A DNA stretch of 64,000 nt from a virus (Duplodnaviria; Caudoviricetes), in IMG/VR virus record IMGVR_UViG_3300026522_000030, positions 4,990-68,989 of that record; one strand, given 5' to 3'. Positions within the stretch are counted from its first letter, which is position 1, and the number at the start of each line of letters is the position of its first letter. The position numbers and the translations under genes were made by a program. Shown here one piece after another: positions 8,680 to 49,209 of this stretch. The notes beneath the pieces were generated by a model, which saw only the letters and a list, made by a program, of their open reading frames with translations, was not told where the DNA came from and searched no databases.

Positions 8680-9777
8680 GTGGCAAACAAAGCGTATAAA
8701 TTTAGACTATATCCTAATGAAGAACAAAAGATATTATTTGCAAAGACCTTTGGTTGTGTCAGATTCATTTACAATCAAATGCTTTCAGATAAGATAGCAC
8801 ACTATAAAGAAACTGGAATGAAGCTCAATAATACTCCTGCACAGTACAAGAAAGAGTTTGAATGGCTTAAAGAAGTTGACAGCCTTGCTCTCGCAAACGC
8901 ACAAATGAACTTGCAGACCGCTTATAATAACTTCTTTAGAACGCCTAAAGTTGGCTTCCCTAAGTTCAAGAGCAAAAAGAAAGATAAGGACAGCTATACC
9001 ACCAATAATCAAAATGGTACAGTAAGTATTATTGACAAGAAACTTAGGTTGCCAAAAGTTGGTCTTGTAAAAATGGTACAACACAGAACAATTTCAGACA
9101 ATGAAAAAATTAAGTCTGCTACAATTACAAGAACGCCAACAGGTAAATATTATGTTTCTATTCTTGTGGAGTATGACAAAACTATTCCTGAGATAGAATT
9201 GTCAAAGGATAAAGCGATAGGATTAGATTACGCAAGTCATAGCTTTTATGTCGATAGTCAAGGCAGAGAAGCAAACTATCCTAAGTTCTATCGTAAGGCA
9301 CAAGACAAACTGGCTCGTGAACAACGCAAACTTGCTAATATGAAGTATGGTAGCAATAACTACCATAAACAAAAAATCAAAGTTGCGAGGATTCACGAAA
9401 GGGTTGCAAATCAGCGTTTGGATTGGATTCACAAACTCAGCACACAATTGGCGAGTGAATACGATATAGTTTGTGTGGAGGATATAAATATGCAGAACAT
9501 GGCAAGGTCATTAAAGTTAGGAAAGTCAACTAATGATAATGGTTTTGGAATGTTCAGAGATATTCTTTCTTACAAACTCGCTGACCGTGGCAAAGCATTT
9601 GTAAAGATTGATAAATGGTTTCCGTCGAGCAAGATGTGTAGGCATTGCGGTTCTATCAACCACGAGCTTACACTTTCAGACAGAGTTTGGACTTGCGGTT
9701 GCGGTGCTACAATCAATCGTGACGAAAACGCTGCAATAAACATAATGAATGAAGGTTTGAGAATGATATTCTCATAA
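8680..9777 (+). CDS. tnpB: TnpB RNA-guided endonuclease
   Basis: N-terminal 'AYKFRLYPN..Q..LFAKTFGCVRFIYN'; RuvC residues in GLDY, VEDI and RDENAA; Zn finger CRHC..CGC. Confidence 0.95.
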   Translation: MANKAYKFRLYPNEEQKILFAKTFGCVRFIYNQMLSDKIAHYKETGMKLNNTPAQYKKEFEWLKEVDSLALANAQMNLQTAYNNFFRTPKVGFPKFKSKKKDKDSYTTNNQNGTVSIIDKKLRLPKVGLVKMVQHRTISDNEKIKSATITRTPTGKYYVSILVEYDKTIPEIELSKDKAIGLDYASHSFYVDSQGREANYPKFYRKAQDKLAREQRKLANMKYGSNNYHKQKIKVARIHERVANQRLDWIHKLSTQLASEYDIVCVEDINMQNMARSLKLGKSTNDNGFGMFRDILSYKLADRGKAFVKIDKWFPSSKMCRHCGSINHELTLSDRVWTCGCGATINRDENAAINIMNEGLRMIFS

Positions 9778-9873
9778 TCAAATAGAAGAACCGTAGGAAC
9801 TACGGGGATAGCTCGTTGATACTGGTAGCAATAGTTACCTTGAGCGAGAAGCCCGTTACGACGGGTAGTTCAC
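9700..9873 (+). ncRNA. TnpB omega/reRNA scaffold (5' boundary approximate)
   Basis: CCGTAG-GAA-CTACGG-GGATAGC hairpin, GGTAGC/GTTACC stem and right-end hairpin ending TCAC. Confidence 0.7.
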
Positions 9874-9992
9874 AGGTAGCCAGTGGGCGCAGAGATTATA
9901 GGGTACTTCCCTACTCGCCTTTATAAAAATATGCGATTTTGTGGTAAATCGCGATTTAGAAAATCGCGATTTGTGTAAAAGGAGAAATAAAT

Positions 9993-28279: not shown

Positions 28280-28382
28280 ATAATTAGAGAAGGTGTAGGC
28301 TTTTTGCACTCTGTCATGGTAACAAATGATGTTTTACTTAATATTTTGTTATGTTAATGTGAATGAAGGGGAGAGGTTGAAA

Positions 28383-29264
28383 ATGCATATTGATAAATTA
28401 TTTAGTGTTTATACACTGTACAATCCTATAAGTCAAAAATATTATGTGGGAATTACATCGCAAAACCCAAAAGATAGATGGAAAAGGGGTAGAGCCTATT
28501 CTCATAACATACATCTAACCAGAGCTGTAGAAAAATATGGTTGGGAAACATTTGAAAAGAACGTTATTGCAACAAATTTGCCGTTTGAGGTCGCAGCACG
28601 ATTTGAACAACGTTTGATACGCGAATGTGATAGTTATAAAAATGGATATAATCAATCTTACGGCGGTGAAAATAGTTCAAGTTTTTCAATGAGCGACGAA
28701 GCAAGAAAGAAAATTGCAGATTCGCGTAAAGGAAAATGTGGGGAGCAGTGCTGGAATTATGGCAAGCACATCGAAGAAATTATGGGCGACAATTATGAAA
28801 CGTGGCTTACTAATGTTAGAGCAGCTCGTCAGTTGCCCACAAAGAAATGGAAGAAAGTAATTTGTCTTAACGATATGAAGATTTATGATAGCTGTGAAAA
28901 GGCTAATGAAGCTTATGGGATAACAACTGTTAATGATATTTGTCATTGCAAAAGAGGAACTGATAAATACGATTCTCGTGGTTATGAATATAAATTTGAT
29001 TTTTATGAAGAAGGAAAAGAGTATACTTTCAATGATTATAATTTAAGGCACTCGGAGAGAGCTGTTAGATGTGTAAATACGGGAGAAATCTTTTACAAAG
29101 TAAGCGAAGTGGCAAGAGTATTGGGTTGCGATGCTTCTGCTATATTAAAAGTCATAAAAGGGAAAATCAAACACACTCACGGATATGTTTTCGAGTATTG
29201 TGGAGAACAATATTCACGAAAGGAAAAGGCAAAGAAATCTCAGCAACAAATTACATCATGCTAA
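28383..29264 (+). CDS. GIY-YIG homing endonuclease with NUMOD3/NUMOD1-type DNA-binding domains
   Basis: 'VYTLYN..KYYVGIT..R..E..GYN'; 'VRCVNTGEIF..EVAR..G..F' C-terminal repeats. Confidence 0.9.
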   Translation: MHIDKLFSVYTLYNPISQKYYVGITSQNPKDRWKRGRAYSHNIHLTRAVEKYGWETFEKNVIATNLPFEVAARFEQRLIRECDSYKNGYNQSYGGENSSSFSMSDEARKKIADSRKGKCGEQCWNYGKHIEEIMGDNYETWLTNVRAARQLPTKKWKKVICLNDMKIYDSCEKANEAYGITTVNDICHCKRGTDKYDSRGYEYKFDFYEEGKEYTFNDYNLRHSERAVRCVNTGEIFYKVSEVARVLGCDASAILKVIKGKIKHTHGYVFEYCGEQYSRKEKAKKSQQQITSC

Positions 29265-39987: not shown

Positions 39988-40812
39988 ATGAATGAACTTG
40001 TTAATTATATAAATGATCGTGTAAATCGATTTATAAAAAGAAGTGATATCCTTAATGCCACTCCTGCGATAGTTATAAGTGTTGAGGACGGGAATTGGGC
40101 AACAATAAATATTTTGTCTAATGGCTCAATTTACAGACTGAAAAATCTGAGTGGTTCTTCTTTGGTTGAGGGGCAAGGCTGTCAAGTGTACTATAAAAAG
40201 AACTTATCGCAAGACAACGCTTTCATTGGGGCTGCTGCTACAAACGAGAGTGCAGATATAGATTATGTATATGGTGACAAAACAACAGGCTCTTTATTTG
40301 AAGAAGAAAGAGAAGTTTCAGAAATAAATTTTACTGTTGGAAACAACAATACTGCGATATTGGTATCATATACAATCGACTTACAAGGGGATTCGTCGAA
40401 TGGAGTTTGTTCTTTTAGGGTACGTGTAGATGAAGAATATTTGGAAAGAATTATTAGATGTTCTGTAAGTGCCGGAGAATTAAAAACTGTTTCTCTTACT
40501 TGTCCGATTACTGTTGATAGAGGAGTTCATCAAATTATTGTTGTAGGGCAAGGAAATGGAGTAGTTAGAGAATTAACATCATTTGTTTTCGGAAATGGAA
40601 TAAAAGAATATGATGTTTACGACCCCACTGATGAATCAGATTATACATATGATAGTGATTCAAATATAATTTATTATATTGGTGAATCAAATAAACCAGC
40701 AGTTCCAACTACTTTGAATGGAAAGTCAGTTGAAAAAATATTAGTCACAGGATTTAATTATAGTGAGGTTACATCGGTTTATATTCCAGAAGGAATTGTA
40801 GAAATAGAATAA
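39988..40812 (+). CDS. tail-tip protein ending in a partial BspA-type LRR
   Basis: C-terminus 'PTTLNGKSV..VTSVYIPEGIVEIE'. Confidence 0.6.
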   Translation: MNELVNYINDRVNRFIKRSDILNATPAIVISVEDGNWATINILSNGSIYRLKNLSGSSLVEGQGCQVYYKKNLSQDNAFIGAAATNESADIDYVYGDKTTGSLFEEEREVSEINFTVGNNNTAILVSYTIDLQGDSSNGVCSFRVRVDEEYLERIIRCSVSAGELKTVSLTCPITVDRGVHQIIVVGQGNGVVRELTSFVFGNGIKEYDVYDPTDESDYTYDSDSNIIYYIGESNKPAVPTTLNGKSVEKILVTGFNYSEVTSVYIPEGIVEIE

Positions 40813-40829
40813 TAAGGAGGGATATTGAT

Positions 40830-41678
40830 ATGACAGGAACAGGAACACAGGCAGACCCCTTTATTGTTGATAACTGGCCGGACTTTGTAACGGCAGTGGA
40901 GACTTCTGGGGCATATGTAGCGTTCCCGAAAGGTGGCGGCACCATTGATATGAATAGTGTTGCTCCGGAGGGCATTCAACAAGTTCAACTCAGGTGTGCA
41001 TCTATTGAAGGTAACAATTGGAATATTTGTAATATATATACAGTTGGGCATGGGGCATTTTATTTGTCTAACAATCTAACGATTAACAATCTTAATTTTC
41101 TTAATTTCTACGGGGATTTTCAAAGTGAAGGAGCCCGTTTCTTTGATAATGATGACCACAATCATCAGTACACGTTTAATCTTTGTGCATTTTCCGGGGT
41201 GCTGACGGGTACGCATGATAGAGCTGGATTATTTGTAGCAGGCTATGTATACAGCAAGATAAGACTGCATAGATGTGCTATTAATGTAAAGTTAGACGGT
41301 AATACTAAGCTCATTTATAGTGGTGGGGCCTCCAATACGGCTGCTAACATGGCAGATTTCTGTAACATACAAGTCTCAGGAACTTCGGTCAATTCTTTGG
41401 CAGATAAGTATAATTACCGGAATTGCTATTTTTCTGGAAAATGCTTAAGTAAAGTTGAATTATATACCGTTTCAAATTTCAACGTGTTCAATGTAGACTT
41501 TACAGAAGCAGAGGGATTTACTTGCTATTGTGAAAATCCTAACGCAATTAATATCATCAACACCGACATACTGCCATCCGGAGTAACTGGTGGTACAGGA
41601 TTCACAGGAGTTACAGAGGCTCAAATGCTTGATGCTAATTATCTGGCAGCGCTGGGATTCCCGATAGGAGTTGATTAA
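40830..41678 (+). CDS. putative tail adhesin / beta-helix protein
   Basis: N-terminal 'GTGTQADPFIV' motif; N/C/F-rich beta-helix-like composition. Confidence 0.55.
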   Translation: MTGTGTQADPFIVDNWPDFVTAVETSGAYVAFPKGGGTIDMNSVAPEGIQQVQLRCASIEGNNWNICNIYTVGHGAFYLSNNLTINNLNFLNFYGDFQSEGARFFDNDDHNHQYTFNLCAFSGVLTGTHDRAGLFVAGYVYSKIRLHRCAINVKLDGNTKLIYSGGASNTAANMADFCNIQVSGTSVNSLADKYNYRNCYFSGKCLSKVELYTVSNFNVFNVDFTEAEGFTCYCENPNAINIINTDILPSGVTGGTGFTGVTEAQMLDANYLAALGFPIGVD

Positions 41679-41680
41679 TT

Positions 41681-42646
41681 ATGGCTCAAATTAATTTGCC
41701 CTACCCCTCCGGAATAAGTCTTATATATGAATATAGTGATTGTACAAATAGTAGTTGGGGAGACAAAGTGTCTGGTCATCCCTTAGAGATATACTCACCT
41801 ATTCTGCATGATGACTATGTAGAGTTTGTCGGAAGTGATACAAGCTATGCAAAGCTGACATATGGTGGTACATCAGGAGGTAATGCTGAAAACAGTGATT
41901 ACTGTATCAGATATGCTTTAGTGAAGAACTTATCTCAGGTGTACAGCAATTGGAGAACAGTTTTTGGTAATGAAACAGCTAATACATACTGTTCTACCAT
42001 TGCTATGGATTCATCGGGAGTTATTAACTTCACTCGACAAGACATAATTCAATCAGGTAGTTATAAATATATAAATGACTGGCACGTAATAGCTTGGACT
42101 TCAAATAAGATTACAGGTCAATCTGCTCTGTATATTGACGGTACAAAGATTGGTACTGCCTCTGGGTGCGATGGATGGGCTGCTGACACATACTTCTTTA
42201 GGGGTTCTTCATGGTATTACAACAACAATAACACAGCCATAAAGTGTTTTATTGTTGGTGATACCATTCCAAGTGATTCTGAAATTCAGCAAAATTCATG
42301 GTATTTGTATGATAAATATCTTGCTTTTTGGAGTATTGATGATTCTAATAATATAACTAATAAATATTTCATTCCCATGCCAGAGCTGTATGACACTCTA
42401 CCCGATGCACTATGGAGAACGGAAGATAATAATTTGTTTAACAAACTAATGCCACAAAACACTTATCTTGGGGCTTTTGCTAATGCCACTCAGTTGCGTA
42501 GAATCTCGATACCTAAATCGTGCAAAAAGATTGGAAGATACTCTTTTAGAAATACAAAACTCACAGCGGTCACAATTGCAAGTGATTGCGTTTATTACGA
42601 TACTTCGTTTCCTGCGGGGTGCGTGGTGAATTTTTATCCAGATTAA
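41681..42646 (+). CDS. putative receptor-binding protein: LamG/ConA-like domain plus BspA-type LRR
   Basis: 'DWHVIAWT..LYIDGTKI' LamG pattern; 'GAFANATQLRRISIPKSCKKIGRYSF' LRR. Confidence 0.7.
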   Translation: MAQINLPYPSGISLIYEYSDCTNSSWGDKVSGHPLEIYSPILHDDYVEFVGSDTSYAKLTYGGTSGGNAENSDYCIRYALVKNLSQVYSNWRTVFGNETANTYCSTIAMDSSGVINFTRQDIIQSGSYKYINDWHVIAWTSNKITGQSALYIDGTKIGTASGCDGWAADTYFFRGSSWYYNNNNTAIKCFIVGDTIPSDSEIQQNSWYLYDKYLAFWSIDDSNNITNKYFIPMPELYDTLPDALWRTEDNNLFNKLMPQNTYLGAFANATQLRRISIPKSCKKIGRYSFRNTKLTAVTIASDCVYYDTSFPAGCVVNFYPD

Positions 42647-44152: not shown

Positions 44153-44683
44153 TTGATGGCAACGCATAATGTTTTTACTAAACTTGCAAACCGTATGGTG
44201 GGTGCGATGATGGTTCATACTCAGCTTACGGAATTGTTTAACTTCATAGACCTCGAAGCTGATGCAAAACGTCAGAAAAAACAACTTCACGAAGAGTCAG
44301 ACGGTCTTTTGAAGTTAGAGAAGTATGCTGCACAGCATCATCATATACTGATAACGTCAGACAATCCACCACAGGTGGACATATTGAATCTCGACATATT
44401 AAAACGTCCAAATGACAAGCTGTCGCCAGATGATAAAATACACCTCATTCAATACGCATTAAAGGAATGGATTGAGTGGGAGAAGAAAAGCAAAGTCATA
44501 TACGAGGACTCCTATCGCAATCTCATAGATATGTCAGAGATAGCTACAGCGGATTTCGTTCTGCAATATGTCAGAGACGTGGACAAAGAGCTGAGAGATG
44601 CGGAATTTCTCTATCGAGTAAGGGATGCTATTGATTGGGATTTGCCGACTATATACGACAAACAGGCAAGGCTGAGTAAGTGA
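44153..44683 (+). CDS. ferritin-like four-helix-bundle protein
   Basis: helices with 'HEES', 'EWEK' and 'ATADFV..DVDKEL' resembling ferritin helices B-D. Confidence 0.55.
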   Translation: MMATHNVFTKLANRMVGAMMVHTQLTELFNFIDLEADAKRQKKQLHEESDGLLKLEKYAAQHHHILITSDNPPQVDILNLDILKRPNDKLSPDDKIHLIQYALKEWIEWEKKSKVIYEDSYRNLIDMSEIATADFVLQYVRDVDKELRDAEFLYRVRDAIDWDLPTIYDKQARLSK

Positions 44684-44684
44684 T

Positions 44685-45068
44685 ATGTTTATACAATACA
44701 ATGAAAACCCACGAGACAACTTTCGAGCAGGAGATTGTGTTGTAAGGGCAATCTCTGTTGTTACAGGCGACCCGTGGGAAAAGATATATGTTGAGCTATG
44801 TGCCGAGGGGTATTTTATGGGAGATTGGGGTAATAATAATGCGGTATGGGACGCTTACCTTAGACGTAGAGGGTTTAAGAGGTATATTTGTCCTAACGAC
44901 TGCCCTTATTGTTATTCAGTTGCAGACTTTGCAAAAGAACATCCAAAAGGCTCATATATCCTCGCTACTGGCAGTCACGCCGTTGCTTGTGTTTCAGGAG
45001 ATTGGATTGATTCTTGGGATAGTGGCTCGGTAACACCGATATATTATTATACGAAAGAGGGTGATTAA
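44685..45068 (+). CDS. putative papain-like (C39-like) cysteine peptidase
   Basis: 'GDCVVRAIS' Cys, 'GSHAVAC' His and 'IDSWD' Asp. Confidence 0.55.
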   Translation: MFIQYNENPRDNFRAGDCVVRAISVVTGDPWEKIYVELCAEGYFMGDWGNNNAVWDAYLRRRGFKRYICPNDCPYCYSVADFAKEHPKGSYILATGSHAVACVSGDWIDSWDSGSVTPIYYYTKEGD

Positions 45069-45437
45069 ATGGCTTGGGGAAATCAATACGGATACGGACA
45101 ACCTGTAATGCAACAACCTCAAATGACTACATTTATCAACGTGCCTTCCGAGGAAGTTGCATATAAATGGAGAGTTGACCCCAATACTTCTGTTAATTTT
45201 ATCAATGAAAACGAGGGGTTTGTTTACAGGAAGTCTGTTGGTATGTCTATTCTTGAACCCTTTTTGTTTGAAGTCTATCGTCTTGAAAAGGTGGGAGATA
45301 ATAATCCTAAAAACGAAGAACAAGCACAAAGCGCACCAAACATAGATTTGTCTGAATATATAACAAAATCAGAGTTTGAAGCCTACAAACAGACGATTGA
45401 TGAAATGAAGAAAATTGTAGAGGAGTTGAAAGGTTAA
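45069..45437 (+). CDS. hypothetical protein (Q/G/Y-rich N-terminus, C-terminal coiled coil)
   Basis: coupled ORF in cassette. Confidence 0.75.
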   Translation: MAWGNQYGYGQPVMQQPQMTTFINVPSEEVAYKWRVDPNTSVNFINENEGFVYRKSVGMSILEPFLFEVYRLEKVGDNNPKNEEQAQSAPNIDLSEYITKSEFEAYKQTIDEMKKIVEELKG

Positions 45438-45679
45438 TGGCTAATCCTTTTGTTTCACAAAATCAAAATCAGGCTCAACCAATGCAAGGGCAACCACAGA
45501 TGCAACAGCCTAATTTCGATCAGGCTTATCAGCAGTTTGCTCCTAATTGGAGACAGTATTTTAAGAATTTACCAGAAGATATACAGACACCAGAACAAGC
45601 GGTTAGGTATTTTGCGCAGAACGGTCAAATACCACCACTTATTCAGAGACAGGTTTATTCAATGCTCAACAGGCGGTAA
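45437..45679 (+). CDS. hypothetical Q/P-rich protein
   Basis: 80 aa coupled ORF. Confidence 0.75.
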   Translation: MANPFVSQNQNQAQPMQGQPQMQQPNFDQAYQQFAPNWRQYFKNLPEDIQTPEQAVRYFAQNGQIPPLIQRQVYSMLNRR

Positions 45680-45791
45680 TTTTGGTATTGGGGCAATAGC
45701 CTTGATATAAATTCATTTATTTTACACACCGGTTGCACATAATGGATGCAATCGCTCACCCCTAACAGTTTGGGGAGAAAGGAGAGTTATT

Positions 45792-46691
45792 ATGGCTCTT
45801 AACAATGGAAATGGAACAGACACAACAATGCTCGTAACACCTTCTTATGGTATGCCGTTTGGTGGCGGTTACGGTGGCGGAAACGGTCTTTTCGGTGGTG
45901 GAGATAGCTGGCTCGGAATACTGTTTCTTATCGCTCTCTGTAATGGCGGATTCGGTTTTGGTGGTGGCTTCGGCGGCGGCTATGGCAATATGATGCTTGG
46001 CTATGACTTCCCTTGGCTTCTTAACGGTCAGAACGGAATTAACAACAATGTAAATGGTGGATTCCGTGACGCACAGCTCCACGACAGCATTACTTCTACT
46101 CGTGATGCAATCTCGGCTCTCGCAACTCAGTTATGTCAGTGCTGTGGCGATATGCAGATGGGTATGCTTAACGGCTTTAACGGTGTCAATAATTCTATTT
46201 TCGGAGCGCAGACAGCTCTTTCACAGCAGATGAACGCAAACGAAATTGCAAGTCTTAATCGCTCATTTGCAGAGCAGACAGCAAATGCACAGGGATTCAA
46301 TGGCGTACAGGCAGGTCTTTCTGATGTCCGCTACACAGTAGCACAGGAGAACTGTCAGGACAGATATGAGGCAGCTCAGAACACAAGAGACATCATTGAT
46401 TCCAATACAAGAAATACACAGGCTATTCTTGACAAGCTTTGTGCTCTTGAACTCGATGGTGTAAAGGCACAGCTTGCACAGGCTCAGAGAGAGAACGTTG
46501 GCTTACAGAATCAGATAAATCTTGCTACAACAAGAGCTGAGAATCTTGTAAACGCAGACAACATTGTAGACAATGTGTATAATCGTCTCAAGAATTGTCC
46601 TGTAAGCAGCACTCCTGTTTATGGTAACACACCTATCTTCACTTGCCCTCAGAACGTAAACGCTGGTTGTGGATGCAACGGCTCTTTCTGA
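45792..46691 (+). CDS. Gly-rich / hydrophobic N-terminus, coiled-coil, Cys-cluster protein of unknown function
   Basis: GGGYGGG..WLGILFLIALC..GFGGG; QLCQCC; C-terminal CGCNGSF; strong codon bias. Confidence 0.8.
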   Translation: MALNNGNGTDTTMLVTPSYGMPFGGGYGGGNGLFGGGDSWLGILFLIALCNGGFGFGGGFGGGYGNMMLGYDFPWLLNGQNGINNNVNGGFRDAQLHDSITSTRDAISALATQLCQCCGDMQMGMLNGFNGVNNSIFGAQTALSQQMNANEIASLNRSFAEQTANAQGFNGVQAGLSDVRYTVAQENCQDRYEAAQNTRDIIDSNTRNTQAILDKLCALELDGVKAQLAQAQRENVGLQNQINLATTRAENLVNADNIVDNVYNRLKNCPVSSTPVYGNTPIFTCPQNVNAGCGCNGSF

Positions 46692-46706
46692 TTGGAGGTG
46701 GCGTGA

Positions 46707-47198
46707 ATGGCTACTGAATTTAGCGCAAATGCAACACAGGTTGTACAGATTAATCAGCCTGTAATATTTACCGAGTCTCCTGTTCCTTGTAACAGAGGAC
46801 TCGTATTCCATAGGGATGAAAGTGGCATCTTTCTTCTCGCAAGCAATGTACCTTCAACTAACACTTGTAGTTGCGGTTGCAGAAAAATCTACGAAACATT
46901 TTATAAGGTAGAGTTTGGCGGAAATATTTCTGTTCCTACCGATCCTGCTGGCACAGTTGAGCCTATAAGCCTTGCTATTGCAATCGACGGTGAAACTGAC
47001 CCAAGCAGTATTATGACCGTCACAGTACCTTTGGTGTCTGATACTTTTGGAGATAATGTTAGCACTTCAATTATAGTAGCAGTACCCAGCCTTTGTGGTT
47101 GTGAAAGTGTTTCAGTAAGAAATATCAGCACACAGGCAATTAATGTAACAAATGCCAATTTGGTTATCACCTATATTGGCAATCGTAGAGTTAGATAA
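46707..47198 (+). CDS. putative BclA-CTD/C1q-like jelly-roll protein
   Basis: alternating beta-strand pattern 'YKVEFGGNI..ISLAIAIDGE..VSVRN..NLVITY'; SCGC motifs. Confidence 0.5.
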   Translation: MATEFSANATQVVQINQPVIFTESPVPCNRGLVFHRDESGIFLLASNVPSTNTCSCGCRKIYETFYKVEFGGNISVPTDPAGTVEPISLAIAIDGETDPSSIMTVTVPLVSDTFGDNVSTSIIVAVPSLCGCESVSVRNISTQAINVTNANLVITYIGNRRVR

Positions 47199-47212
47199 GA
47201 AAGGTGGCAAAC

Positions 47213-47656
47213 ATGGATAAGAAGATTGATATTCTTTATGACCTTTGTGAGATGACCTTTAAGGAGTTAGAATCCACAAAGAGAGAGCTTGAAAACGCTG
47301 GTGGTCAGCTTGACGAACAGCACGTTGAATACCTCAAAGACCTCACGGAAATGCTGAAAGATATTAAGTGTGTTATTGGCATGATGGAGGATGAGGAAGA
47401 AGGCTATTCTGGCAACTACTACTATGACGATGATATGCCTATGGCAAGAGGCGGTCGTGGCGGTAGATCAAACGCTCGTGGTGGACGTTCTAATACTCGT
47501 GGCGGTTCTTATGAACGTGGACGTAGCAACCGCAGAAGCTATGGTCGAATGGAATCTCGTGACGATTTTATGGATAGATTTGAGGAACTCATAGACGAAG
47601 CTCCTGATGAGGCAACTCGCAAGAAATTTGAGCGTCTTATGATGGAGATGAAGTAA
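47213..47656 (+). CDS. acidic coiled-coil protein with RGG-rich low-complexity segment
   Basis: 'ARGGRGGRSNARGGRSNTRGGSYERGR'. Confidence 0.8.
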   Translation: MDKKIDILYDLCEMTFKELESTKRELENAGGQLDEQHVEYLKDLTEMLKDIKCVIGMMEDEEEGYSGNYYYDDDMPMARGGRGGRSNARGGRSNTRGGSYERGRSNRRSYGRMESRDDFMDRFEELIDEAPDEATRKKFERLMMEMK

Positions 47657-47663
47657 TTATGAA

Positions 47664-47697
47664 GGGGCGGTGGTTAATCGCTACCGCCCCATTTTTT
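47664..47697 (+). terminator. intrinsic terminator closing the cassette
   Basis: GGGGCGGTGG/CTACCGCCCC stem followed by ATTTTTT. Confidence 0.85.
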
Positions 47698-47712
47698 ATT
47701 AGAGGTGATTAT

Positions 47713-47898
47713 ATGAGAATTAGAGATAGATTGGCTAAACTAATAGATGTAAAATCTCTTATCACTTTTGCTCTCACGGCAACATTTGTGTATCTTGCAA
47801 TCGTAGGTAAAATTGAACCACAAATTTTTATGACGATATATACCGTCGTAATTGGATTTTACTTCGGCACACAAGTTGAAAAGAATAAAAAGGAGTGA
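47713..47898 (+). CDS. putative holin
   Basis: 61 aa, two hydrophobic helices, charged C-terminus, precedes endolysin. Confidence 0.65.
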   Translation: MRIRDRLAKLIDVKSLITFALTATFVYLAIVGKIEPQIFMTIYTVVIGFYFGTQVEKNKKE

Positions 47899-47903
47899 TT
47901 TTA

Positions 47904-47987
47904 ATGGACGATAAAACTATTTTACTCAGCGCAGAAGCAGAAGAAGAACTCTCAAACGGAAAAGGAAATGACGAAGAGGAGGTGTGA
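47904..47987 (+). CDS. 27-aa acidic peptide (not in ORF track)
   Basis: AAGGAG RBS, ATG 47904, MDDKTILLSAEAEEELSNGKGNDEEEV, TGA 47985-47987 abutting the amidase start. Confidence 0.55.
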   Translation: MDDKTILLSAEAEEELSNGKGNDEEEV

Positions 47988-47989
47988 GT

Positions 47990-48853
47990 ATGGCTTTTAC
48001 AAACTCATCTTTGGTATCTTATACTCAAATATCGCCAAATAGAAACTCGCCAAGAAATCAGTCCATTACTAAAATCACAATACATCATATGGCAGGTATT
48101 ATGTCTGTAGAACAGTTTGGCAATCTTGTGGCAAACCCTGCAAGGCAAATGTCTGCTAACTATGCTATTGGCAATGATGGCCGTATAGGTTTGTTTTGCC
48201 CAGAGGGTGATAGATCGTGGTGTAGTTCAAGCCCGTGGAATGATAATCGTTCAATAACCATAGAAGTCTCCAACGATGTTTACGGCGAGCCATGGTCTAT
48301 TTCTAATAAGGCTTATGAGTCGCTAATTAAACTTTGTGTAGACATTTGCAAGAGGAACGACATAAAAAAGCTTGAATTTACTGGTGATAAAAATGGCTCG
48401 CTTACATATCACTATATGTTTTCACCAACAGCGTGTCCGGGAACGTGGATAAAAAAACATACGCAAGAAATATGTAATAAGGTTAATGCGCAACTTGCAG
48501 AACCTACAGGTTTGTATACAAAAACTCTTACAAGTGGCACTCCGATATATTCGGAAATTGGGAAGCCCGCAACTGGCAAAATCACTGTAGCTACCAAATA
48601 TACAATAGCGGAGGAAAAGATAGTAAATTATGTCAAGTACGGCAAACTCAAATCTGGCGCAGGTTGGGTTGAGATTGAGAAACTAAAAAGGACATTTAAC
48701 ATAAATAATTCAGGCGATGTAAAAGAGCTTCAAAACGCTCTTAATGCAAAAGGGTTCAATTGTGGCAGTGCGGACGGTGTTATGGGATTGCACACTCAGA
48801 ATGCTATGTTTCAGGCTCTTTGTGAAATGTGGTTGCAGAATGGGGTGAAGTGA
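47990..48853 (+). CDS. endolysin: N-acetylmuramoyl-L-alanine amidase (Amidase_2) with C-terminal peptidoglycan-binding domain
   Basis: 'TIHHMAG', 'SANYAI', 'ITIEV', 'H..F..TACPG'; 'DVKELQNALN..G..DGVMG'. Confidence 0.9.
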   Translation: MAFTNSSLVSYTQISPNRNSPRNQSITKITIHHMAGIMSVEQFGNLVANPARQMSANYAIGNDGRIGLFCPEGDRSWCSSSPWNDNRSITIEVSNDVYGEPWSISNKAYESLIKLCVDICKRNDIKKLEFTGDKNGSLTYHYMFSPTACPGTWIKKHTQEICNKVNAQLAEPTGLYTKTLTSGTPIYSEIGKPATGKITVATKYTIAEEKIVNYVKYGKLKSGAGWVEIEKLKRTFNINNSGDVKELQNALNAKGFNCGSADGVMGLHTQNAMFQALCEMWLQNGVK

Positions 48854-49209
48854 TGGCTGTGTCAGATAAGGATTTTTATGAATTAAAGGCAGATGTACAC
48901 TCTAACGCGCAGACAATTAACAATTTGCAGTCAAGGGTGAGCGATATTGAAAAGAAGCAAGAAATGCTTTACGAAATGAATAGTAATATCGCACTTATCG
49001 CACAGTCTCTTAAACAAGTTGAGGATGACGTTGGAGAAGTGAAAGAAAATCAGAAGGAACTCAGTAATAAGGTATCTACCTTAGAAAACGCTCCAGCAAA
49101 GGAAACTTTGGATAATATTAAGAAAATAAAAATAGCTGCCATTACAGCGGTTACAACAATGATAGCCACAGGCGTAGCAGGTGCGATAATCGTAGCTTTG
49201 GCTAAATAA
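48853..49209 (+). CDS. coiled-coil protein with C-terminal TM helix (XhlA/holin-like)
   Basis: heptad pattern then 'IAAITAVTTMIATGVAGAIIVALAK'. Confidence 0.6.
   Translation: MAVSDKDFYELKADVHSNAQTINNLQSRVSDIEKKQEMLYEMNSNIALIAQSLKQVEDDVGEVKENQKELSNKVSTLENAPAKETLDNIKKIKIAAITAVTTMIATGVAGAIIVALAK

Follow-up and report, generated by a model that had tools for sequence, protein, structure and literature searches.

Exosporium layers are built in the cytoplasm and freed by lysis. Among the systems described on the exosporium of the Bacillus cereus group are the anchoring of naps by BclA and ExsFA (BxpB) and the appendages formed by F-Anchor, ExsF and F-BclA. Collagen-like fibres are docked through their leader peptides at the interfaces of the stand-alone ExsF trimer, and the attachment of BclA involves the proteolytic trimming of its leader (PMC12357932). 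The TNF/C1q-type fold class of these proteins is also found in phage heads such as the short fibre of cyanophage A-1(L), gp23 of TM4, the needle knob of Sf6 and the receptor-binding protein of lactococcal phage 1358, while the two-part fibres of the T2 type (gp37/gp38) carry a separately encoded tip. Here, we analysed a gene cassette that shares features with both groups of systems. It is located in a 64,000-nucleotide stretch (hereafter the window) of the virus record IMGVR_UViG_3300026522_000030, which is a single contig of 68,989 bases. Seven genes, g1 to g7, make up the cassette (Table 1), and six of them, g2-g7, constitute an accessory operon, portable and expressed late, that recurs in hundreds of phages of Clostridia from the gut and rumen.

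A sequence-only reading of this DNA had proposed seven tightly coupled genes of unassigned function, closed by a strong terminator. The seven open reading frames (ORFs) were indeed found on the + strand between 44153 and 47656, with junctions of 0-15 nt or overlapping (g1/g2 1 nt, g2/g3 0 nt, g3/g4 a 1-nt overlap, g5/g6 15 nt, g6/g7 5 nt), except for the 112 nt that precede g5. The terminator was also recovered as a hairpin at 47664-47690, directly 3′ of the g7 stop codon, and the end coordinate given earlier, 47697, marks the end of this terminator. The idea of a seven-gene unit stood only in part. The seven genes are co-oriented, but the conserved unit comprises six of them (g2-g7, 44685-47656), because no more than 7 of the 67 related loci, those of close relatives, contain g1.

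These 67 viral loci were obtained by scanning IMG/VR with the g6 alignment. By BLAST, 63 of them have g5 immediately before g6, and 59 have g2 upstream. Clustering of ORFs recovered the complete string g2-g3-g4-g5-g6-g7 in 42-47 loci, many of the gaps being contig ends or antisense ORFs that displaced genes in the crude gene calls; the g4 cluster was present in 34 loci and the g7 cluster, directly after g6, in 42. The same gene order was observed in 19 contigs of bacterial genomes or metagenome-assembled genomes (MAGs). Furthermore, Butyrivibrio phage Ceridwen encodes homologues of g2, g3, g5, g6 and g7 in this order, with a 66-aa ORF at the position of g4. Thus, the neighbourhood survey confirmed that similar cassettes recur in gut Firmicutes phages, as the sequence-only reading had stated, and established that g2-g7 occur together as a unit elsewhere. 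The genes that flank them do not follow the same pattern: homologues of the upstream tail genes of the window were detected in 2-6 of the 67 loci, and the range was 2-8 when the downstream lysis genes were included. Since the module stays while its flanks have so few homologues, it is portable and bound to no single tail or lysis type.

Table 1. Features of the cassette and its immediate surroundings in the window
Feature	Coordinates	Strand	Basis or remarks
g1, 176 aa, acidic, helical by eye	44153..44683	+	lineage-specific, outside the core
g2, 127 aa, predicted minimal papain-like (clan CA-type) Cys-His-Asp enzyme	44685..45068	+	phrog_3754
g3, 122 aa, low-complexity N-terminus and beta-rich core	45069..45437	+	phrog_21718
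g4, 80 aa, Gln/Pro/Asn-rich, short helical C-terminal part	45437..45679	+	composition, cluster
g4-g5 gap with promoter-like box GGCAATAGCCTTGATATAA (45692-45710)	45680..45791	+	gap conservation
g5, 299 aa, Gly-rich hydrophobic segment, helical stalk and Pro/Cys tail	45792..46691	+	phrog_16490
g6, 163 aa, stand-alone TNF/C1q-type jelly roll	46707..47198	+	phrog_20016, predicted fold
g7, 150 aa, acidic with RGG run	47204..47656	+	composition, cluster
Intrinsic terminator closing the cassette	47664..47700	+	11-bp stem with 8 GC pairs, then ATTTTTTATT
Lysis module (holin-like, endolysin, XhlA-like)	47713..49209	+	PHROG, Amidase_2 and XhlA matches

Searches of all seven proteins against Pfam, PHROGs, NCBIfam and PADLOC returned solely PHROGs of unknown function, for g2, g3, g5 and g6. 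The PADLOC families gave a single weak match, that of g5 to the ZorA coiled coil (E 0.002, 15 bits), which we judged to be coiled-coil noise. The families are nevertheless large, with at least 8000 clusters at 90% identity for g5, all of them unnamed, and about 1100 for g6; none of the g5 and g6 family members listed carries a name or a Pfam domain. A literature search on BclA/C1q-like proteins and prophages found no account of such a phage module, and a search of structure titles did not name it either. The operon is without a described counterpart as a system, and only one of its six proteins resembles anything known, in fold alone.

That protein is g6, for which a Cys-containing jelly roll had been proposed from its sequence. 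The AlphaFold2 (AF2) model (predicted local distance difference test, pLDDT, 79.5) displays a ten-strand TNF/C1q-type jelly roll, and Cys28, a Cys-bearing loop and Cys130/Cys132 are conserved in the family, so both parts of the proposal were borne out. The best fold match (VIA) was F-BclA (9h38; Z 15.8, root-mean-square deviation (rmsd) 1.9 Å over 124 aa), followed by BclA (1wck, Z 15.2), EDA (Z 14.1) and ExsFA (7r1m, Z 13.5 over 139 aa). Members of the C1q/TNF family scored Z 9-13, and phage fibre or receptor-binding heads Z 9-12. The Foldseek comparison that had been suggested as a check agreed, with matches of the BclA/ExsFA type (E 1e-7, TM 0.66-0.79), among them the ExsFA-type structure 8d02. 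Leads from the protein atlas pointed to BclA, C1q and the Sf6 knob for g6 and to nothing for g5, and a BFVD fold search retrieved nothing beyond phage proteins that are uncharacterised and fibre heads of the collagen/C1q type. At the level of sequence, none of 36 g6 family members matched BclA_C (PF18573) or C1q (PF00386), even at E <= 1, and the whole g6 alignment matched no named family in Pfam.

The g6 family consists of stand-alone proteins. An exhaustive HMMER search yielded 706 clusters at 50% identity, essentially all of them 135-165 aa long; a search for longer relatives revealed no fusions, and the one 757-aa match from the exhaustive search was of a repeat type and judged not to be a fusion. 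Because the family always stands alone, its architecture is nearer to that of ExsFA/BxpB, which is likewise stand-alone and of about 160 aa, than to that of BclA. Further parallels with the exosporium extend to the operon. The fold of g6 is shared with both the BclA/ExsFA (BxpB) and the F-Anchor/ExsF/F-BclA systems (Z 13.5-15.8, rmsd 1.9-2.7 Å), and, as in the Bacillus exosporium, the neighbouring genes encode Cys-rich proteins, low-complexity proteins and a candidate enzyme for their processing. Signal peptides are absent from all module products, and a hydrophobic segment is present in g5 alone. Like exosporium proteins, the products would be cytoplasmic and freed by lysis. The differences are also clear. 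We detected no sequence homology of g6 to BclA or ExsFA, no GXY repeats in g5 or g6 and no match to the exosporium leader (TIGR03720), meaning that the module is without a collagen-like stalk or exosporium leader. It also has no partner of the ExsY/CotY type and, unlike the exosporium genes, is encoded by phages and prophages only.

With the TNF-like phage heads listed above, g6 shares the fold class (Z 9-12), and the module shares with phage fibres, including the two-part T2-type ones, its late expression beside tail or lysis genes, a stalk with variable repeats (g5) and, in some phages, tail-protein-like genes within or beside it. In contrast to those heads, g6 lacks an attachment or shoulder domain at its N-terminus, occurs in no fusion with a fibre and, together with g2, is among the slowly evolving members of the module, whereas receptor binders are usually the fastest. 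Moreover, the module travels among phages with unrelated tails.

Immediately upstream of g6, g5 was described by the sequence-only reading as a Gly-rich hydrophobic, coiled-coil protein with a Cys cluster, and our results agree. The protein begins with a conserved N-terminal motif and a variable Gly-rich run, followed by an almost invariant hydrophobic segment, DSWLGILFLIALCNGGFGFGG. Its hydropathy maximum (1.62) spans residues 32-50, within a Gly-rich hydrophobic segment at about residues 32-60. Glycine makes up 14% of the protein, and it has 10 conserved cysteines. The body is Q/N/A-rich and helical, and contains an 11-residue unit, NGxNxVNxNLx, in 1 to 3 copies among close relatives. The tail is Pro/Cys-rich and ends in GCGCNGSF, and two interchangeable tail types exist within the family. 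A search of PDB sequences with the g5 profile gave only noise. A long antisense ORF (45762-46082, - strand) covers the Gly-rich part of g5, and equivalents of 170-700 aa in many relatives misled the simple gene caller used here; we set this ORF aside as a probable compositional by-product of Gly-codon-rich sequence.

The Cys-His-Asp peptidase that had been read into g2 received structural support. Cys18, His98 and Asp109 are invariant among 39 sequences with a mean identity of 43%, as are Asp17, Arg21 and Trp31, and the family match is to phrog_3754 at 4e-25. In the AF2 model (pLDDT 92.8), Cys18 opens a helix (18-27), and His98 and Asp109 are placed on strands. The 50 best structural neighbours (VIA) all belong to the papain-like cysteine peptidases (Z 3.8-6.9 over 89-121 aligned aa), including staphopain, Josephin, AvrPphB, C39 domains and UfSP. 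A Foldseek search with the same model gave nothing below E 0.1, and for this reason the support for a papain-like fold is only moderate. With that degree of confidence, we consider g2 to be a minimal papain-like Cys-His-Asp enzyme of no nameable family. Its order of Cys, His and Asp, its triad and its predicted fold are those of clan CA peptidases, such as C39, the staphopains and deconjugases of the Josephin and UfSP types. It differs from them in its size, smaller than that of the matched enzymes, in Z scores of only 5-7 and in its lack of Pfam or NCBIfam membership; when all 39 family members were compared with Pfam, they matched no named family and no C39. The predicted chemistry would be compatible with that of a peptidase, a transpeptidase or a transglutaminase-type enzyme.

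The products of the cassette had further been described as protease-matured, which was a conjecture, and a comparison of alignments found no N-terminal leader or cleavage motif shared by g3, g4, g5 and g7 that would mark them as substrates of g2. We also considered a bacteriocin-type arrangement, in which a C39 peptidase would act on a double-glycine leader. This was rejected because the module contains neither an ABC-transporter partner nor, in the neighbours of g2, such a leader, both of which set g2 apart from C39 double-glycine peptidases. Unaccompanied by the other module genes, genes with a g2-like papain fold also occur in Tsamsa-like Bacillus phages, which are about 160-170 kb in size (L088, Tsamsa 9509-9904), and in Geobacillus phage GBK2 (L089, 26471-26860), and some of these records carry the label "putative peptidase". 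Their neighbours in Tsamsa and GBK2 are all hypothetical proteins and uninformative.

The remaining core proteins are of low complexity. Two Q/P/G-rich proteins had been noted, and they correspond to g3 and g4. In the former, a Q/P/G/Y-rich N-terminus that varies in length precedes a conserved core rich in beta structure (..PVAPG..Y.KS) and a helix at the C-terminus, and the latter consists of 24% Gln, 11% Pro and 10% Asn. The RGG-rich acidic protein is g7 (net charge -9), with an acidic helical N-domain, an R/G/S/Y low-complexity middle that includes the RGG run, and an acidic C-terminal helix. The description of g1 as a ferritin-like bundle that buffers iron was not supported: the protein has no ExxH metal-binding motif, no match in Pfam, PHROGs, NCBIfam, PADLOC or PDB sequences, and is not part of the conserved core.

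Codon usage sets the second half of the operon apart. Codon adaptation was scored among + strand genes, taking the presumed scaffold and capsid genes as reference; the capsid gene was assigned by gene order only (terminase, a portal-sized gene, then 403 aa, 160 aa and 328 aa), because no library names those genes. Against this reference, g5 scored 0.71 (95th percentile), g7 0.61 and g6 0.57, all three within the 92nd-95th percentile and just under the reference genes, whereas g1-g4 were ordinary and g1 was at the 5th percentile. The capsid-like codon bias claimed for the Gly-rich gene is thus upheld, with the capsid itself presumed, and it extends to g6 and g7. From their codons, g5-g7 look highly expressed. 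The change coincides with the longest gap of the operon, as the g4-g5 junction has a median length of 118 bp in 32 loci versus 0-13 bp at the others. Within this gap, the window contains an extended -10-like box with no -35 element, followed by two small hairpins and a strong ribosome-binding site. A 12-mer of the box is unique within the window. About 15 loci have the same box at a distance of 57-94 bp upstream of g5, and others have less strict variants of it (GCGCA...TATAAA). We infer that it may be a module-internal promoter that raises the expression of g5-g7.

The module was found in two genomic settings, always on the late-gene strand. In the first, which is that of the window, tail genes are followed by the module and then by holin and endolysin genes. 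In the second, endolysin and small membrane protein genes precede a gene for a protein of about 70 aa, followed by the module and by a reverse-strand integrase or recombinase and a helix-turn-helix (HTH) repressor. The endolysins of this layout are of the GH25, glucosaminidase, NlpC/P60 or lysozyme-2 type, and the integration enzyme is a tyrosine integrase or a serine recombinase. Overall, at least 14 loci have a lysis cassette between the tail genes and the module. Weak but consistent matches to sigma-70 region 4 were obtained for all tested members of the family of about 70 aa (E 5e-5 to 0.06). This region-4-like HTH occurs in 9 of the 14 loci whose lysis genes lie upstream versus 1 of the 13 whose lysis genes lie downstream (Fisher p=0.004, uncorrected for relatedness), and the genome of the window encodes no homologue of it. 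Since the regulator accompanies the module largely where it follows lysis genes, late expression fits both layouts. The simplest reading of these arrangements is that the module must be expressed late, which may be achieved through read-through from the tail operon or through an activator of its own. Examples in which the HTH gene directly precedes g2 are L013:4690-4896, L024:4424-4633, L056:3262-3468 and L061:1031-1237.

Some loci carry additional genes. In two of them (L026:3921-5834 and L028:3999-5855), a gene of 618-637 aa is inserted between g4 and g5, its start abutting or overlapping the g4 stop. Its N-domain matches PHROGs of the "minor tail / virion structural protein" kind (phrog_2012), and the other part is a GDSL esterase in L026 and weakly pectinesterase-like and beta-helix-like in L028. 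In L049, a tail-fibre-like gene of 1138 aa follows g7. HNH endonuclease genes are found between g5 and g6 in L002:6374-6997 (phrog_374, 4e-66) and L049:6257-6982 (assigned by cluster membership), and these look like selfish insertions inside the operon. After g7, temperate relatives often encode a further conserved protein (cluster 11, MITEQDLQEAIAEC..., about 110 aa; L044:7881-8231 and nine further loci). It matched no family and could be a seventh component of the module that is not always present.

All contexts of the module are phage or prophage. The contigs presumably derive largely from ruminant-gut metagenomes, judging by their sample identifiers, and further carriers are phage records from human, lemur and rodent guts. 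Genome matches with a name are MAGs of Oscillospiraceae, Ruminococcus, Lachnospiraceae and other Clostridia, and the isolate Butyrivibrio sp. INlla21, in which the genes next to the module encode a GH25 lysin and an integrase. A few matching MAGs are labelled Bacteroidales or Selenomonadaceae, and these may be binning errors. Ceridwen also has a Butyrivibrio host (Butyrivibrio fibrisolvens DSM 3071); it has been observed in the lytic cycle only, and the module is kept there. The publication on this phage contains no proteomics of its virions.

These hosts bear on the proposal of a spore-coat or exosporium-like shell. Searches for Spo0A_C and SpoIVA gave no match in INlla21, a genome of unknown completeness, while the Bacillus subtilis control was positive. 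Because INlla21 lacks such matches and the host of Ceridwen is also a Butyrivibrio, the module is, as far as these gene contents indicate, independent of sporulation. Hence, the exosporium-like idea retains the BclA and ExsFA/BxpB fold of g6, while its link to spores is not supported.

Based on these findings, we postulate that the operon encodes a late-made, trimer-based fibre- or nap-like assembly that is matured by g2 and located on the virion or released with it, a reading to which we assign a probability of roughly 35%. We propose that a multi-protein structure would be built in the infected cell late in infection and would then remain attached to the virion, probably at its tail end, or leave the cell together with it at lysis. 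In this structure, the abundantly made g5 would be the stalk or anchor, with its hydrophobic N-terminal segment, helical stalk of variable repeats and Pro/Cys tail. A TNF/C1q-fold trimer of g6 could act as hub or head, much as ExsFA/BxpB does when it docks fibre proteins to the exosporium of Bacillus. The low-complexity proteins g3, g4 and g7 may be accessory or "cement" proteins, and g2 may trim or cross-link one or more proteins of the module. Joint assembly, the trimeric state, the role of g2 and the destination of the products are what we infer; the gene content, order and conservation of the module, its two layouts, its phage-only context, the folds of g2 and g6, the triad and the codon bias are the observations from which we set out.

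Several of these observations speak for such an assembly. The order of g2-g7 is fixed, with junctions of 0-13 bp and translational coupling; the module is kept in the lytic-only Ceridwen and occupies a late-strand position in both layouts; and g5-g7 combine capsid-like codon usage with a conserved box before g5. The fold of g6 also forms phage fibre heads, and g6 stands alone as ExsFA does. The repeat number of g5 varies, tail-protein genes are embedded in the module (L026, L028) or adjoin it (L049), and g2 combines a papain-like fold with an invariant triad.

A number of points weigh against it. No fused forms tie g6 to a fibre, and the TNF fold is common and by itself shows no function. The tail type of g5 swaps freely against near-identical g6, and the cysteines of the g5 tail and of the g6 loop co-vary in a weakly negative manner, giving no backing for a specific lock between the two; together, the swaps and the lack of co-variation argue against such a lock. 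The module is independent of tail type, and in many phages it comes after the lysis genes, a position typical of cargo and not of virion genes. Lastly, g6 and g2 evolve slowly, unlike outward-facing receptor binders, and the structural matches of g2 reach only Z 5-7. More tentatively still, the module might represent a new class of virion-associated or lysis-released phage structure, which would comprise a BxpB-like TNF-fold anchor, prion-like low-complexity and Cys-rich proteins, a mini papain-like enzyme and its own late activator.

We weighed four other explanations for the operon. According to the first, which is close to the shell of the sequence-only reading, the Cys-rich, low-complexity products would self-assemble in the cytoplasm into a matrix, shell or occlusion outside the virion, embedding or coating the released virions and aiding their survival outside the cell. 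The absence of signal peptides and the restriction of hydrophobic segments to g5 are in line with this, and the compositions (Q/P/Y, Q/N, G/F and RGG/Y) and Cys clusters recall coat or exosporium material and condensate-forming proteins. The exosporium-protein fold of g6, the apparently high and late expression, and the precedent of exosporium layers, likewise built in the cytoplasm and freed by lysis, also fit. We consider it unlikely all the same: the habitat of the hosts is strongly reducing, so that a case for disulfide cross-linking or for protection from oxygen would be hard to make, a carrier host has no sporulation-gene matches, the supposedly iron-buffering g1 is not conserved, and the tail-protein genes embedded in the module point to the virion.

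A device that acts on membranes, either in the timing or completion of lysis or in genome entry, also appears improbable. Here, g5 would form a trimeric coiled coil with a Gly/Phe/Leu segment resembling a fusion peptide, which would insert into the cytoplasmic membrane, perhaps once g2 has trimmed the protein. The nearly invariant Gly-rich segment reaches hydropathy in the transmembrane range and precedes a long helical region, and the module is nearly always found beside holin and endolysin genes. The architecture of g5, with an N-terminal membrane segment, a coiled coil and conserved cysteines, recalls that of i-spanins, which pair with an outer-membrane lipoprotein in diderm hosts. When g5 was compared with spanins, the hydrophobic segment and the helical body were present, but no gene for a partner lipoprotein was evident in the module, and Butyrivibrio, being monoderm, needs no spanin. 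Six genes are far above the usual need of a lysis accessory, there is no shared leader or cleavage motif, and the ZorA-like match amounts to coiled-coil noise. Such a device would also leave the capsid-like expression of g5-g7 and the TNF-fold partner unexplained.

Still less probable is a cargo for lysogenic conversion (a moron), expressed from the prophage and remodelling the host surface for adhesion, aggregation or phage exclusion. In temperate relatives, the module does occupy a classic cargo position, between lysis genes and integrase, and is accompanied by a small regulator and promoter-like boxes. This explanation is difficult to reconcile with the retention of the module in the lytic-only Ceridwen, with its place in the window, 25 bp after a tail-fibre gene and with no predicted terminator in between, and with the codon usage of g5-g7, which is like that of structural genes. 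In addition, five of the six products have no export signal, and no match to a defence family was found.

Finally, that the products are ordinary assembly chaperones or adaptors for the fibre genes just upstream, as the position of the cassette directly after them in the window would allow, is very improbable and was largely refuted by the neighbourhood survey, since tail genes differ among carriers while the module is constant (the upstream tail genes recur in 2-6 of 67 loci, and a lysis cassette intervenes in at least 14), and six genes that include an enzyme and abundant low-complexity proteins are ill-suited to a chaperone set.

The surroundings of the cassette in the window are those of a structural and lysis region. 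Upstream are genes of the tail-fibre type, and the gene at 38809 matches a PHROG tail protein. The tail-fibre region at 39988-42646 contains a CARDB-like domain (39988-40812) and a BspA-type leucine-rich repeat (41681-42646), which are possible adhesin parts. Further upstream, amid the structural region, a homing-endonuclease-like gene (28326-29264) matches phrog_314 and also families of the GIY-YIG type. Downstream, the lysis genes include an Amidase_2 endolysin (47984-48853, 4e-17) and an XhlA-like gene (48829-49209, with XhlA/hemolysin-type matches). The holin ORF as listed (79 aa, 47659-47898) takes in the terminator of the cassette. Its match to phrog_13256 covers residues 23-78 and, because it begins only at residue 23, the true start is probably the Met at 47713.

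These findings have implications for the understanding of gut phages. The operon is very widespread and is found in phages of the dominant Clostridia that degrade fibre and produce butyrate in the guts of ruminants, primates, rodents and humans. Even so, all six of its proteins are without a name, a Pfam family or a publication of their own. Three of the six are, judging from codon usage, expressed like major structural proteins. The operon offers a tractable set of low-complexity proteins of bacterial viruses together with a dedicated enzyme, and it is directly testable in a cultured phage, Ceridwen, and a cultured lysogen, Butyrivibrio sp. INlla21. If the operon indeed encodes a new particle-associated or released structure, this would change the annotation of these phages and possibly the view of their persistence or attachment in the gut, and the BclA/BxpB fold would have a second use, one that is carried by phages and lies outside spores.

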